Shown here one piece after another: positions 29,612 to 59,660 of a DNA stretch of 64,000 nucleotides (positions are counted from its first letter, which is position 1; every line of letters begins with the position of its first letter). Below the pieces are notes generated by a model, which saw nothing but the letters and a program-made list of their open reading frames with translations, was not told where the DNA came from and did no database searches. This DNA comes from Intrasporangium sp. (GTDB taxonomy: Bacteria; Actinomycetota; Actinomycetes; Actinomycetales; Dermatophilaceae). The position numbers were made by a program, and so were the translations under genes. The stretch lies in the NCBI RefSeq assembly GCF_051961875.1, contig NZ_JBQCCV010000125.1:36915-100914 (forward strand), written 5' to 3'.

Positions 29612-29684
29612 GCGGACGTAGCTCAGTTGGTAGAGCGCAACCTTGCCAAGGTTGAGGTCGCCGGTTCGAGCCCGGTCGTCCGCT
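29612..29684 (+). tRNA. tRNA-Gly(GCC)
   Basis: Cloverleaf: GCGGACG/CGTCCGC acceptor stem, anticodon loop TT-GCC-AA, GTTCGA T-loop. Confidence 0.97.
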
Positions 29685-29706
29685 CGGAGGGCAACTTGCC
29701 TTCAAC

Positions 29707-29777
29707 GGTGGAGTGGCCGAGAGGCGAGGCAGCGGCCTGCAAAGCCGCGTACACGGGTTCAAATCCCGTCTCCACCT
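29707..29777 (+). tRNA. tRNA-Cys(GCA)
   Basis: GGTGGAG/CTCCACC acceptor stem, CT-GCA-AA loop, GTTCAA T-loop. Confidence 0.96.
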
Positions 29778-29792
29778 CTCGGTCACAACCCC

Positions 29793-29864
29793 GGGCGATT
29801 GGCGCAGTGGTAGCGCGCTTCCTTGACACGGAAGAGGTCACTGGTTCAAACCCAGTATCGCCCA
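29793..29864 (+). tRNA. tRNA-Val(GAC)
   Basis: GGGCGAT/ATCGCCC acceptor stem, TT-GAC-AC loop, GTTCAA T-loop. Confidence 0.96.
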
Positions 29865-46860: not shown

Positions 46861-46934
46861 GGACGTGTAGCTCAGTTGGTTAGAGCGTTCGCTTCACACG
46901 CGAGAGGTCAGGGGTTCGAGTCCCTTCACGTCCA
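46861..46934 (+). tRNA. tRNA-Val(CAC)
   Basis: GGACGTG/CACGTCC acceptor stem, TT-CAC-AC loop, GTTCGA T-loop. Confidence 0.95.
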
Positions 46935-55975: not shown

Positions 55976-57970
55976 GTGTCTGCAGAGATCACCGTCACCG
56001 TCGCCGGAAGCGAGCGATCGGTGGCGGAGCAGACGACGGCGGCCGAGCTGTTCAAGCAGATCGGACGTGACGACCGCGACATCGTCGTGGCGCGCGTCAA
56101 CGGGGCGCTGCGCGACCTCTTCCACGTCTTGGGCGAGGGCGACGTCGTCGAGCCGGTCACGGTCGACAGCGAGGACGGCCTCGCCGTCCTGCGGCACTCC
56201 ACCGCCCACGTCCTCGCCCAGGCGGTCCAGCAGGTCAACCCGGACGCCAAGCTCGGCATCGGCCCTCCGATCCGCGATGGCTTCTACTACGACTTCGACG
56301 TCGACGAGCCGTTCCAGCCCGAGGACCTCAAGGCCCTCGAGAAGGCCATGCAGAAGATCGTCAACGAGGGGCAGACCTTCCAACGGCGTGTCGTCACCGA
56401 TGACGAGGCCCTGCGTGAGCTCGCCGACGAGCCGTACAAATGCGAGCTCGTGGGCCTCAAGGGCGGCGCCGGCGATGCGGCCGAGGGCGCCAGCGTGGAG
56501 GTCGGGGCCGGTGAGCTGACCATCTACGACAACATCCGCCGCGACGGCACCCGCGCGTGGGGCGACCTGTGCCGTGGGCCGCACATCCCGAGCACCAAGC
56601 TCATCGGCAACGCCTTCAAGCTGATGCGATCCGGAGGCGCCTACTGGCGTGGGTCGGAGAAGAACCCCCAGCTGCAGCGCATCTACGGCACCGCCTGGCC
56701 CACCAAGGACGAGCTCAAGGCCTACCTCGACCGGCTCGCGGAGGCCGAGCGGCGCGACCACCGCAAGCTTGGCGCGGAGCTCGACCTCTACTCCTTCCCC
56801 GACGAGCTCGGGTCGGGCCTGGCCGTCTTCCACCCCAAGGGCGGGGTCATCAAGCGCGAGATGGAGGACTACGTCCGCCGGCGGCACATCGAGGAGGGCT
56901 TCCAGTACGTCGGAACCCCGCACATCAGCAAGGACGGCCTGTTCCACACCTCCGGCCACCTGCCGTACTACGCCGAGACGATGTTCCCGCCCATGGAGAT
57001 GGAGGGCGCGGAGTACCGCCTCAAGGCGATGAACTGCCCGATGCACAACCTCATCTACAAGTCGCGCCAGCGCTCCTACCGTGAGCTGCCGCTGCGCTTC
57101 TTCGAGTTCGGCTCGGTCTACCGCTACGAGAAGTCGGGCGTCGTCCATGGCCTGACCCGGGTGCGGGGCATGACGCAGGACGACTCGCACTCCTACGTCA
57201 CCCGTGAGCAGGCGCCGGGGGAGGTCCGCCACCTGCTCGACTTCGTCCTGTCGCTGCTGCGCGACTTCGGCCTCAACGACTTCTACCTCGAGCTGTCCAC
57301 CCGCGACACCGAGGGCGACAAGAAGGACAAGTTCATCGGCTCCGACGAGCAGTGGGAGGACGCCACCAGGATCCTCGAGCAGGTCGCCACCGAGACCGGG
57401 CTCGAGCTCGTGCCGGACCCGGGCGGCGCCGCCTACTACGGTCCCAAGATCTCCGTCCAGGCGCGTGACGCCATCGGGCGGACCTGGCAGATGTCGACGA
57501 TCCAGTACGACTTCAACCAGCCGGAGCGCTTCGGCCTCGAGTACCAGGCCGCGGACGGGTCACGGCAGGAGCCGGTCATGATCCACTCGGCCAAGTTCGG
57601 CTCGATCGAGCGGTTCCTCGGTGTCCTCGTCGAGCACTATGCCGGCGCCTTCCCGGTCTGGCTCTCGCCGGTCCAGGTGCTCGGCCTGCCGGTCGCCGAG
57701 GAGTACGCCGACTACCTGGGCGAGGTGCTCGCGCAGCTGCGCCGCAAGGGCGTGCGGGTCGAGCTCGACGCGAGCGACGACCGCTTCCCGAAGAAGATCC
57801 GCAACGCCTCGAAGTCCTAGGTGCCCTAGGTCCTCATCGCCGGTGAGGTGGACCGGGCCGCGGGTGCCGTCTCGTTCCGGTTCCGGGACGGGTCCCAGAA
57901 GAACGGGGTCCCCGTCGACGACGCGATCGCCGAGATCCTCCAGGCGATCGAGTCCCGCGCCCAGGTGTGA
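55976..57970 (+). CDS. thrS: Threonine--tRNA ligase, interrupted by two in-frame TAG codons (57818-57820, 57827-57829)
   Basis: [55 protein letters not shown]. Conserved anticodon-domain sequence continues after the TAGs to TGA 57968-57970. Confidence 0.93.
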
Positions 57971-58040
57971 ACCGGCCCCCCGGCGACGACTTTCCGCGAA
58001 AACCTTGCGCGGGGACGAGAACGGGGGTTCAATCAGACCT

Positions 58041-58183
58041 ACCGAACCGCTTCGGCGGATCGGATTCCTCAATCGCTGTAGCGAATGAGGAACAGAAGGC
58101 CCGGGAACTCATACTTCCCGGGCCTTCACCTTCCGTCTTGCACCGGCCCTGCGGCTCTCACACCCGCAGGGCCGTCTGCTTTC
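58041..58183 (+). ncRNA. Putative structured small RNA with four consecutive hairpins
   Basis: Stems at 58042-58063 (UUCG loop), 58065-58092, 58095-58127 (13 bp perfect) and 58145-58173 (10 bp perfect). Candidate promoter TTGCGC-N17-TTCAAT at 58005-58033. Confidence 0.55.
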
Positions 58184-58297
58184 TCCGCCGCCCTGCCGCA
58201 GCGCCGGTGCACAGGGCCGGGCCAGATCGCGCAGGAGCGGGCAGGATCGGGTAACGGGAACCTGATCGGGTACGGGCCGGCGACCAGGAGGTGCCGC

Positions 58298-59008
58298 GTG
58301 TACGTCTACCGGGACCGGGTCGATGCCGGCCGCAGGTTGGGGGAGTCGCTCGCGGACCTGTCGCTCCGGGACCCCGTCGTCCTCGGCCTGCCGCGCGGTG
58401 GCGTGCCAGTCGCGGCCCAGGTCGCACGCCGCCTCGGTGCCCCCCTCGACGTCGTCGTCGTGCGCAAGCTCGGCGTGCCGAGCCAGCCGGAGCTGGCCAT
58501 GGGCGCCATCGGTGAGGAAGGGGGGCGGGTCGTCGACGCGCGGATCATGCGGGCGGCCCGGGTCGACGAGCGGCGCCTCGCCGAGGTCGAGGACCAGGAG
58601 CGTGAAGTCCTGCAGGATCGGGTTGCCCGCCTCCGGCGGGGCCGGCCCCGCGCCGAGCTCTCCGGCCGGACGGCGGTCATCGTCGACGACGGCATCGCGA
58701 CCGGCGCGACGGCCCGGGTCGCCTGCCTCGTCGTCCGGGCGCTCGGGGCGCGGCAGGTCGTCGTGGCCGTTCCGGTCGGCCCACCGGACATCGACGACCG
58801 GATGCCCGAGGCCGACGCGGTCGTCTGCCTCGAGAAGCCGTGGGGCTTCCGGGCCGTCGGTGGCGCCTACGACGACTTCGACGCGACCACGGACGATGAG
58901 GTGGAGCGGCTGCTCGAGGCGGCCCATCCCGGCTCAGGCGGTCCCGCTGCCGACCCGGAGAATGGTGAGGCCCTGCGATCTCACACATCGCAGGGCCGGG
59001 ACCATTGA
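58298..59008 (+). CDS. Type I phosphoribosyltransferase-like protein
   Basis: AGGAGG RBS; YRDR.DAG..L, LGLPRGGVPV, RKLG.P, VIVDDGIATG.T. Confidence 0.87.
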   Translation: MYVYRDRVDAGRRLGESLADLSLRDPVVLGLPRGGVPVAAQVARRLGAPLDVVVVRKLGVPSQPELAMGAIGEEGGRVVDARIMRAARVDERRLAEVEDQEREVLQDRVARLRRGRPRAELSGRTAVIVDDGIATGATARVACLVVRALGARQVVVAVPVGPPDIDDRMPEADAVVCLEKPWGFRAVGGAYDDFDATTDDEVERLLEAAHPGSGGPAADPENGEALRSHTSQGRDH

Positions 59009-59081
59009 ACACGCCCTACCCGGCGATCTCCGAATCGACACGCTGCCCGGCAAGGGAGGAGCACCCCATAGGATCGCGGGC

Positions 59082-59660
59082 ATGACCGACCAGAACGGGG
59101 AGACGCCGTCCTCGGTGCGCATCGAGGACGTGGACGACCTCGTCCACGTGGACGACGGCTTCGAGCGACTCTGGACGCCCCATCGGATGGCGTACATCGC
59201 GGGGGAGAAGCCCACGGATGAGGCCGGCCACGGCTGCCCGTTCTGCACGGCCTCGGGCAAGGACGACGCCGAGGGGCTCATCGTCCACCGCGGTGAGCAC
59301 TGCTACGTGGTGATGAACCTCTTCCCCTACAACCCCGGACACGTCCTCGTCTGCCCGTACCGCCACGTGTCGCTCTACGTCGACCTGACCGACCAGGAGA
59401 CGGCGGAGTTCACCCTCCTGACGAAGCAGGCCATCCGGGCCCTGCAGTCGGCCTCCGAGCCGCACGGGTTCAACATCGGCATGAACCAGGGCGCGGTGGC
59501 CGGGGCCGGCGTCGCGGCACACCTGCACCAGCACGTCGTCCCGCGTTGGGCGGGCGACATGAACTTCCTGCCGATCGTCGGGCAGACCAAGGCGCTGCCC
59601 GTGCTCCTCGAGGACACGCGCGAGCAGATCGTCTCCAACTGGCCCGGCGCCGGTCAGTAG
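59082..59660 (+). CDS. HIT family protein (Ap4A phosphorylase, Rv2613c-like)
   Basis: RLWTPHRM.YI, CPFC, NLFPYNPGH, AHLHQHVVPRW. Confidence 0.92.
   Translation: MTDQNGETPSSVRIEDVDDLVHVDDGFERLWTPHRMAYIAGEKPTDEAGHGCPFCTASGKDDAEGLIVHRGEHCYVVMNLFPYNPGHVLVCPYRHVSLYVDLTDQETAEFTLLTKQAIRALQSASEPHGFNIGMNQGAVAGAGVAAHLHQHVVPRWAGDMNFLPIVGQTKALPVLLEDTREQIVSNWPGAGQ

Follow-up and report, generated by a model that had tools for sequence, protein, structure and literature searches.

A predicted small RNA gene with an invariant CUCAUAC-loop hairpin downstream of thrS in Intrasporangium, and its relatives in the class Actinomycetes

We have analyzed an intergenic element in a 64,000-nucleotide stretch of an Intrasporangium sp. 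draft genome (assembly GCF_051961875.1, contig NZ_JBQCCV010000125.1). The whole stretch is called the window here, and all coordinates refer to it. The element follows thrS, whose stop codon is at 57968-57970, and precedes a phosphoribosyltransferase (PRTase) gene at 58298-59008 that matches Pfam Pribosyltran; a HIT-family gene starts at 59082 and pgsA comes next. An initial annotation, made from the sequence alone, had described four hairpins in this gap behind the promoter-like sequence TTGCGC-N17-TTCAAT, and had interpreted them as one novel four-hairpin small RNA (sRNA), either independent or a structured leader of the PRTase gene. Direct reading and folding confirm the hairpins and the promoter at the places described, with coordinates off by at most one base; the interpretation is partly supported. 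We put a probability of roughly 0.6 on the reading that the locus holds a free-standing sRNA gene, the reduced ~90-nt "type A" form of a family that occurs in part of the class Actinomycetes and is absent from Rfam. The features of the element are the following.

58005-58010, plus strand: -35 element TTGCGC, read directly; the box is kept at equal distance in 22 type-A loci.
58028-58033, plus strand: -10 element TTCAAT, 17-nt spacer from the -35 element, 8 nt to hairpin 1.
58042-58063, plus strand: hairpin 1, 5'-terminal, CCGA-A-CCGC-UUCG-GCGG-A-UCGG, with UUCG tetraloop and A-A internal mismatch (fold and alignment).
58065-58092, plus strand: hairpin 2, variable middle hairpin, UUCCUCA-A-UCGC-UGUA-GCGA-A-UGAGGAA, with UGUA loop and A-A mismatch (fold and covariation).
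58095-58127, plus strand: hairpin 3, perfect 13-bp GC stem with loop CUCAUAC at 58108-58114 (covariation and covariance model).
58128-58144, plus strand: linker or tail ACCUUCCGUCUUGCACC, single-stranded and pyrimidine-rich (direct reading and type-A alignment).
58145-58173, plus strand: hairpin 4, 10-bp stem (11 bp counting the flanking C-G), loop CUCUCACAC with core CUCACAC (20 loci).
58174-58186, plus strand: weak, U-containing tail GUCUGCUUUCUCC 3' of hairpin 4 (direct reading).

Folded as RNA, the segment 58036-58195 reaches a minimum free energy of -83.3 kcal/mol in a structure that consists of exactly the four hairpins, with loops UUCG, UGUA, CUCAUAC and the longer loop given above. None of 200 dinucleotide shuffles was as stable (mean -49.8 +/- 4.0 kcal/mol; z = -8.4). 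The reverse strand of the segment also folds stably (z = -7.3), so folding by itself cannot choose the strand. The predicted transcription start is near 58040, about 6-7 nt past the -10 box. The element is present in one copy in its own 4.0-Mb draft genome, where BLAST returned only the element itself and short chance matches; it is therefore neither a repetitive extragenic palindrome, the alternative that the initial annotation had named, nor another dispersed repeat. Hairpins with a CUCAUAC or CUCACAC loop occur in this genome only at this locus, as hairpins 3 and 4 and a further hairpin 5 described below, and the three lie within less than 950 bp.

The homolog search and covariation analysis that the initial annotation had proposed as a check revealed a conserved structure with compensatory pairs in all hairpins. 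A BLAST search of 60 relatives found the whole element in each of the other four genomes of the genus, at 78-94% identity, and in two genera besides, and hairpin 3 alone in many more. The element is kept, with compensatory changes, across Intrasporangium, Terrabacter, Terracoccus and relatives. In 22 type-A loci the promoter has a shared layout, namely CTTGCG, CTTGCC or CTTGTC, 17-18 nt, TACAAN, TAGAAN or TTCAAT, 6-7 nt, and then UACCGAA. The relatives' counterparts of TTCAAT are TACAAT, TACAAA, TAGAAA or GACAAT, and UACCGAAC..., the first strand of hairpin 1, begins 6-7 nt past the -10 box in all 22. Hairpin 1 is almost invariant in these sequences, with a single compensatory pair (C-G to U-A in 4 of 22). 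Hairpin 2 is variable and has several compensatory pairs, among them G-C/A-U at 11:11 and U-A/C-G/U-G at 9:8:5. For hairpin 3, an alignment of 41 copies has 14 pairs with 95.6% of cells paired, 11 pairs changed on both sides, and none of 500 shuffles that matches it. Hairpin 4, in 20 loci, is paired in 99.1% of cells, with 3 compensatory pairs and with G-U in 11 cells. In hairpins 3 and 4, the G-U and U-G pairs would be A-C mismatches if read from the other strand; since such pairs are tolerated solely on the plus strand, that strand is the selected one, in agreement with the direction of the promoter.

The proposal of one four-hairpin RNA is doubtful, as the distance from the start of the hairpin 3 loop to that of hairpin 4 varies between 38 and 103 nt among relatives. 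Hairpin 4 looks like a separate module of the hairpin-3 type and may serve as a back-up terminator or be what remains of a second copy of the gene. Hairpins 1 to 3 together with the promoter make up the predicted sRNA gene of ~90 nt that we call type A, at 58005-58127 and possibly extending to 58186. Within it, hairpin 3 probably serves as the recognition element and also as the terminator or stable 3' end. That the RNA gene is independent, as the initial annotation had allowed, is borne out by the conservation of the promoter in the 22 loci and by the recurrence of the RNA away from thrS and from any PRTase gene.

Hairpin 3 belongs to a much wider set of sequences. The 11-mer AACTCATACTT is present in 51 of 121 genomes of the family, with 69 matches compared with 2 for the reversed control, and it nearly always forms the tip of a 13-16-bp GC hairpin with arms that vary by lineage. 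A covariance model of the terminal hairpin (R1) was built from 41 copies, the copy in the window included; with it, positions 58095-58127 score 63.9 bits (E = 3e-10), and both the loop and the A-U closing pairs of the window are those of the family consensus. Matches to R1 score 45-68 bits in 7 families of the order. At class level 71 of 401 genomes matched at E <= 1e-5, adding 17 further family-level groups. Only 3 of 401 genomes matched in a phylum-wide sample, and none of these was of Streptomyces size (7.5-9.2 Mb) or Mycobacterium size (5-6.5 Mb). The collected set comprises 219 distinct hairpin copies with 74 distinct 5' stem arms and always the loop CUCAUAC. Part of this set was collected by a pattern that contains the loop; the BLAST and covariance-model matches were not so chosen, and CUCAUAC is identical in every BLAST match and every strong model match, while the stem varies freely. 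The two loop-closing pairs are A-U/A-U in 195 of the 219 copies and variable in the remainder. The trinucleotide ACC stands directly 3' of the stem in 103 of the 219; a tRNA-like minihelix ending in ACCA was considered, but ACCA occurs in only 5.

In all, the family extends over Dermatophilaceae/Intrasporangiaceae, Nocardioidaceae and at least 20 further family-level groups. Named carriers in a scan of species-representative genomes are Intrasporangium, Terrabacter, Terracoccus, Knoellia, Phycicoccus, Pedococcus, Nostocoides, Ornithinibacter, Lapillicoccus, Flexivirga, Aeromicrobium, Marmoricola, Nocardioides and Propionicimonas. Other genera of the Dermatophilaceae have an RNA of ~180 nt, type B, in the gap that follows thrS, at loci where the C-terminus of ThrS is 75-96% identical to that in the window; type B is present in Aeromicrobium and Marmoricola too. 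It has a promoter of like kind (..CTAGAAAT), a 5' UUCG hairpin followed by GGGAUCGAGA, a helix GGUGAUGC...GCAUCAC, and the terminal hairpin. Position, promoter, the motif UUCGG...GGAUCGGAU and the terminal hairpin are common to type B and the window RNA, which looks like a type B RNA in which the ~90-nt GGUGAUGC...GCAUCAC middle domain has been swapped for hairpin 2. The class-level long forms are 190-320 nt in length, with a promoter of the TTGTGC-N17/18-TAGAAAT type, a 5' hairpin GUCNCCGG-GNRA-CGGNGAC and several GNRA-capped hairpins. Compared with them, the window RNA possesses the 3' GC hairpin with CUCAUAC loop and pyrimidine-rich tail and, as judged by sequence, a promoter fixed relative to a 5' tetraloop hairpin (TTGYGC, 17-18 nt, TANNNT-like); it has neither their middle domain nor an upstream array of DnaA-box-like words. 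It is therefore taken as a reduced variant that position, promoter and 3' hairpin tie to the long forms. Tandem duplication is frequent in the family, with copies ~360-500 nt apart (L018/L102 of the PHYC1 metagenome-assembled genome, L040, L075) and three copies in L244, each with its own promoter.

The initial annotation could not name an Rfam family for the element, and none exists at the thresholds applied. With Rfam 15 at gathering thresholds, the whole window gives only four tRNAs, at 29612-29864 and 46861-46934, and the scan is empty at the element itself. A permissive scan of 57800-58400 gives chance-level matches only, 40 related loci have no gathering-level match, and nine long-form loci have none even at E <= 0.5. 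Literature searches with the loop sequence, and with DnaA box, sRNA and actinobacteria in combination, found nothing relevant to a CUCAUAC family. The family is new, at least in being absent from Rfam 15 and the searchable literature, and its kind is well known. The best sub-threshold Rfam matches are to scr5239 (RF02605; 16.7 bits against a gathering threshold of 64, E = 2.1) and, on the opposite strand, Scr4115 (RF02829; 22.7 bits against 58, E = 1.4), Streptomyces sRNAs that likewise have several GC-rich hairpins and short conserved loop words; these matches are at chance level, driven by the GC hairpins.

The closest known parallels are 6C and Ms1. The 6C RNA (RF01066; B11/ncRv13660c in M. 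tuberculosis, scr3558 in S. coelicolor) is also a free-standing actinobacterial sRNA of ~60-100 nt made of GC hairpins; its conserved apical loops are thought to be a pairing surface, and it works without Hfq. Its loops are C-runs, in contrast to CUCAUAC in the window RNA, and it is found in Streptomyces and Mycobacterium, whereas the CUCAUAC family is without matches in sampled genomes of those size ranges. The 6C model has no match in 57800-58400 at E <= 10 (threshold 47 bits). The best 6C-like sequence of the own genome is on contig C304; it scores 31.2 bits and so stays under this threshold. Ms1 of M. smegmatis (MTS2823 in M. tuberculosis, scr3559 in S. coelicolor) resembles the long forms in being a widespread, structured sRNA of 200-300 nt with its own strong promoter. 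It has been predicted in Intrasporangiaceae, Nocardioidaceae and Cellulomonadaceae, where it adjoins 6C between Fic/oxidoreductase-type and HAD/CpaE-type genes, and the Ms1 gene of Knoellia locipacati is on NZ_BKBA01000008.1 (Vankova Hausnerova et al. 2022, PMC9130861). The window locus, between thrS and the PRTase and HIT genes, differs from this arrangement, and the CUCAUAC RNA of Knoellia locipacati is on NZ_BKBA01000011.1, not on the Ms1 contig. We found an Ms1-like RNA followed by a 6C-like RNA on contig C8 of genome G116, which we assume to be NZ_BKBA01000008.1. The Ms1-like sequences close with another terminator and have no CUCAUAC loop. Identity with either Ms1 or 6C is ruled out by position and sequence. 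An Ms1-like gene followed by a 6C-like RNA is also seen in the own genome (minus strand of C304, ~1700-2500; L247), and DnaA-box-like TTGTCCAC words lie just downstream of this pair, before a CpaE/ParA-like gene.

Coding and tRNA-like alternatives were considered and rejected. On the minus strand the loop reads GUAUGAG and opens a frame of 27 codons in the window and of only 7 codons in type B, so that the frame is not conserved. The plus-strand frame through the hairpin (G-P-G-N-S-Y-F-P-G-P) is roughly as expected by chance in high-GC DNA, where stops are rare, and those downstream genes that are in frame with it are mutually unrelated. ARAGORN and the Rfam tRNA model place tRNAs elsewhere, and only the loop of the element resembles an anticodon loop. 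That loop has seven nucleotides with pyrimidine-U-N-purine on its 5' side and sits on a stable stem, as in YUNR and tRNA anticodon loops, and from this likeness we infer a U-turn geometry. In E. coli an operator upstream of thrS mimics tRNA-Thr (CGU) and controls the synthesis of threonyl-tRNA synthetase in cis. The window RNA differs from it in lying downstream of thrS (in one family only), in carrying CAU, and in not being tRNA-like to ARAGORN or Rfam.

Copies of the RNA from relatives are found in transcriptome and metatranscriptome assemblies. The evidence consists of assembled contigs, which give presence and a plausible 3' end, no 5' end and no abundance. In the PHYC1 wastewater genome, which has a tandem pair of type-B genes after thrS, contigs of two metatranscriptomes span thrS and the two RNA genes and break off within the 3' arm of the last hairpin 3; the following 170 nt have no coverage. 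Type-A RNAs of relatives are found at low depth in metatranscriptome contigs from root, rhizosphere and soil. Transcriptome assemblies of an I. calvum-like isolate also hold a type-A RNA, in a contig whose depth is 3-8 times that of the contig past hairpin 5; its sequence matches that of genome L056, which we take to be Intrasporangium calvum. Across the family, the tails 3' of the stem average 3.4 U per 12 nt.

The genes around the RNA vary. It sits after thrS in at least 50 Dermatophilaceae loci, and the same RNA and promoter are found away from thrS in the I. calvum-like loci L014 and L056. Flanking genes of the class-level copies are unrelated, lineage-specific and in either orientation. 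This variation by lineage indicates a free-standing gene and not a leader. The PRTase gene is found only in the five genomes of the window's genus. In relatives that lack it, hairpin 5 lies directly 3' of hairpin 4, which indicates that the PRTase gene was inserted between these two related hairpins; as a genus-specific insertion it cannot account for the RNA as primarily its leader, and the leader proposed in the initial annotation is not upheld. In a sister genome (G004) the PRTase start is ~33 nt past hairpin 4, and the gene is there probably read through from the sRNA promoter. The thrS frame of the window itself has two in-frame TAG codons, three codons apart, at 57818-57829 (AAG TCC TAG GTG CCC TAG GTC), after which the frame resumes to its stop at 57968-57970.

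In the window, the PRTase frame extends through hairpin 5 to the first stop. Hairpin 5 and its companions are the following.

58967-58997, plus strand: hairpin 5, GAGGCCCUGCGA-UCUCACACA-UCGCAGGGCC, inside the last codons of the PRTase frame.
59002-59010, plus strand: CCAUUGAAC, 3' of hairpin 5 (direct reading).
59036-59043, plus strand: CGACACGC motif, 38 nt past the hairpin 5 stem, which accompanies hairpins of this type at a fixed distance.

Hairpins 4 and 5 have the loop core CUCACAC in common, which differs from CUCAUAC by one base, and one relative (L047) has a hairpin-5-type stem that carries a CUCAUAC loop. A conserved module is recognizable, consisting of the hairpin with loop UCUCACACA, then CCAUUGAAC, ~26 nt and AAUCGACACGC; it is present at 58967-59043 in the window and at L010-L015, L054-L056, L077, L084, L111-L114 and others. 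The word GACAC occurs 34-44 nt past the stem in 21 of 25 hairpin-5-type and 30 of 219 hairpin-3-type copies (control GTGTC, 0 and 5), a fixed spacing that suggests a DNA-level or processing signal. A sigma-A promoter that would include the word (TTGAAC-N18/19-NNNAAT-CGACAC) fits only the Intrasporangium/Terrabacter hairpin-5 module and was rejected; the class-level copies do not fit, and the -10 would be poor.

Further words in the DNA accompany the RNA genes. DnaA-box-like 9-mers number 0.56-1.35 per locus upstream, compared with 0-0.19 in downstream controls; two or more are present at 52 loci, and many lineages other than that of the window have three to five ahead of the -35. Arrays of two to five such words (TGTGGACAA, at most one mismatch) occur within 200 nt upstream of the -35 in the long-form genes of Nocardioidaceae and many other families (L220, L232, L235, L239-L245, L081-L096, L099-L213), which suggests that DnaA may control the RNA in the lineages that bear them. 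None was found in the window (57600-58040) or in the Dermatophilaceae copies. A palindrome CGGCGTGTC-N6-8-GACACGCCG is seen beside the sRNA genes of several Dermatophilaceae genera, upstream of the promoter in L014, L015, L019, L025, L042, L056, L064, L068, L069 and L071 and downstream in L022, L040 and L215; an operator is one possibility, a hairpin with GACAC as a shared word another. WhiA, whose published motif is GACAC, is one candidate reader of both the (A)AUCGACACGC word and this palindrome. The word CAGCGGCATACGG, or the palindromic ACGTATGCCG...CGGCATACGT, is found near hairpin loci of Intrasporangium-group genomes (L014, L056, L210, L084, and contigs C69 and C304 of the own genome). 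The own genome also has a dispersed repeat of ~60 nt, ..TGAGCCAAGSCGTGAGGACCCGACCGAGCGCCAGCGAGGGAGGCCCGGAGCGCCGATTCGGC.., in 10 intergenic copies (C21, C105, C143, C183, C229, C275, C314), some of them tandem and one between nuoD and nuoE. This metagenome-assembled genome contains no rRNA genes.

The mechanism that we propose runs as follows. A housekeeping-type promoter, TTGCGC-N17-TTCAAT, would start a transcript near 58040 that folds into the 5' UUCG hairpin, the variable middle hairpin and the 13-bp GC hairpin with its CUCAUAC loop. Hairpin 3 would probably end the transcript, with hairpin 4 as a second stop, and the 5' hairpin may protect the RNA against 5'-end-dependent decay. The terminal hairpin and its fixed loop are the sole feature kept by every member of the family, so the loop should be the working part. 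Its sequence, C-U-CAU-A-C, has the form of an anticodon-like YUNR U-turn; YUNR loops are used by antisense RNAs for fast pairing. The loop would thus present CAUAC for rapid pairing with 5'-GUAUG-3', the AUG start-codon region of a target RNA, and for the CUCACAC variant the match would be GUGUG, with a GUG start. Pairing with a GUAUG-type RNA is our leading guess. The initial annotation had taken the C/U-rich loops for surfaces that pair with Shine-Dalgarno regions. This is not supported, as the loops carry the fixed words CUCAUAC or CUCACAC and are not CCUCC-like; only the linker part CACCUUCC resembles an anti-Shine-Dalgarno sequence. It is at least 90% conserved in type A (alignment columns 88-96) and may offer a second pairing surface.

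Several points weigh against the sRNA gene and the pairing proposed for it. A simple consensus scan of the locus calls neither a promoter nor a terminator; it misses them owing to the T for A at position 2 of the -10 box and the U-poor tails. The -10 box of the window copy is indeed weak, and few U residues follow hairpins 3 and 4. The window's own sequence was met only in DNA runs from soil and rhizosphere, and the contigs of relatives, of modest depth, could include DNA or read-through from thrS. The GACACG word at fixed distance and the upstream DnaA-box arrays are DNA-level signals within the module for which an sRNA gene does not account. Nor has the target prediction from the loop that the initial annotation had suggested given a target: in the one complete genome searched, GUAUGAG occurs 56 times, below a rough estimate from composition, with no enriched or conserved target. 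Twelve of the 56 are at plausible starts, including those of nuoE and a PfkB-type kinase; none stands out, and two lie in weak hairpins. A loop of seven nucleotides is moreover a short seed.

Other explanations fit parts of these data. One is that the RNA is real and acts by binding a protein, the invariant loop on its long helix then serving to recognize or decoy some RNA-binding protein, for instance one that reads tRNA-like anticodon loops. Titration of this sort has precedents in 6S and Ms1 for RNA polymerase and in CsrB for CsrA, and a decoy explains the complete invariance of the loop equally well: all seven bases are fixed, even those that pairing need not fix, while the closing pairs vary. 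The loops of all three tRNA(CAU) genes of the genome, on other contigs, are CUCAUAA and agree with CUCAUAC at 6 of 7 positions, the GNRA-capped hairpins in which the long forms are rich are typical of defined three-dimensional folds, and the search with the loop complement came back empty. Against a protein partner, no candidate gene for one travels with the RNA, its neighbours being lineage-specific; type A retains just the terminal hairpin and small 5' hairpins, which would confine the binding surface to that single hairpin; and neither ARAGORN nor Rfam finds anything tRNA-like at the element. We consider it less likely that the loop is read by a protein than that it pairs, and the explanation as a whole unlikely.

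It is quite improbable that the element acts in cis only, with hairpins 3 and 4 as terminators of thrS and hairpins 1 to 4 as a leader or attenuator of the PRTase gene. The element does lie between these two genes, contigs of relatives join thrS to the RNA, and in the sister genome G004 the short distance from hairpin 4 to the PRTase start has no space for a promoter, so that transcription of the gene must pass through the hairpins. But the RNA is far wider in distribution than the PRTase gene, it stands with its promoter away from thrS in L014 and L056, its class-level neighbours are unrelated or convergent, and promoter boxes are conserved between the thrS stop and hairpin 1; a plain terminator, besides, needs no seven fixed loop bases across more than 20 families. 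We regard as highly improbable that the conserved features are DNA-level signals with an incidental transcript, either sites for a recombinase, replication protein or transcription factor that include GACACG, or the decayed ends of tandem copies. The GACAC spacing, the DnaA-box-like arrays, the palindromes that adjoin many Dermatophilaceae copies and the crowding of three such hairpins in the window would agree with such signals. The tolerance of G-U and U-G pairs on the plus strand only points instead to selection at the RNA level, the promoter and 5' hairpin are conserved at a fixed distance, the region is found in transcriptome assemblies, and no integrase or transposase gene is linked to it.

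Our preferred reading remains that of the sRNA gene: taken together, the comparisons describe what is predicted to be a genuine, conserved and independently promoted gene, and its invariant, anticodon-like loop gives a precise experimental handle. A more far-reaching scheme, a long shot, is that the family is an anticodon-loop mimic that couples replication status to translation initiation. Were this so, DnaA would, by way of the upstream arrays, gate the RNA's transcription in many lineages; the CUCAUAC loop would act like the anticodon loop of initiator or elongator tRNA-Met, and the C-U-CAC-A-C loop of hairpins 4 and 5 like that of tRNA-Val, the two reading AUG and GUG, the two main actinobacterial start codons. 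Such loops would pair directly with start codons that stand within GU-NUG-AG, also at the 5' end of a leaderless mRNA, or would decoy a protein that reads the CAU anticodon, such as methionyl-tRNA synthetase or TilS, and the ~90-nt form in the window would be the minimal functional core.

To our knowledge, Actinobacteria are without Hfq and ProQ and have very few sRNAs that are conserved past the genus, the main exceptions being 6C and Ms1. The CUCAUAC family would be a third widely conserved actinobacterial sRNA family beside these two; it is probably uncatalogued because the sampled genomes of Streptomyces and Mycobacterium size are without it. Its signature is sharp, seven fixed loop bases on top of a freely covarying stem. 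Cultured carriers are available in Intrasporangium calvum, Terrabacter, Knoellia and Aeromicrobium, and RNA-seq of the I. calvum-like isolate is public. The copy in the window would be the smallest natural version of the RNA, in which the middle domain and the DnaA boxes appear dispensable and the promoter, the 5' hairpin and the terminal hairpin are kept; since the minimal form keeps the terminal hairpin, this hairpin would be the obvious target for mutation.

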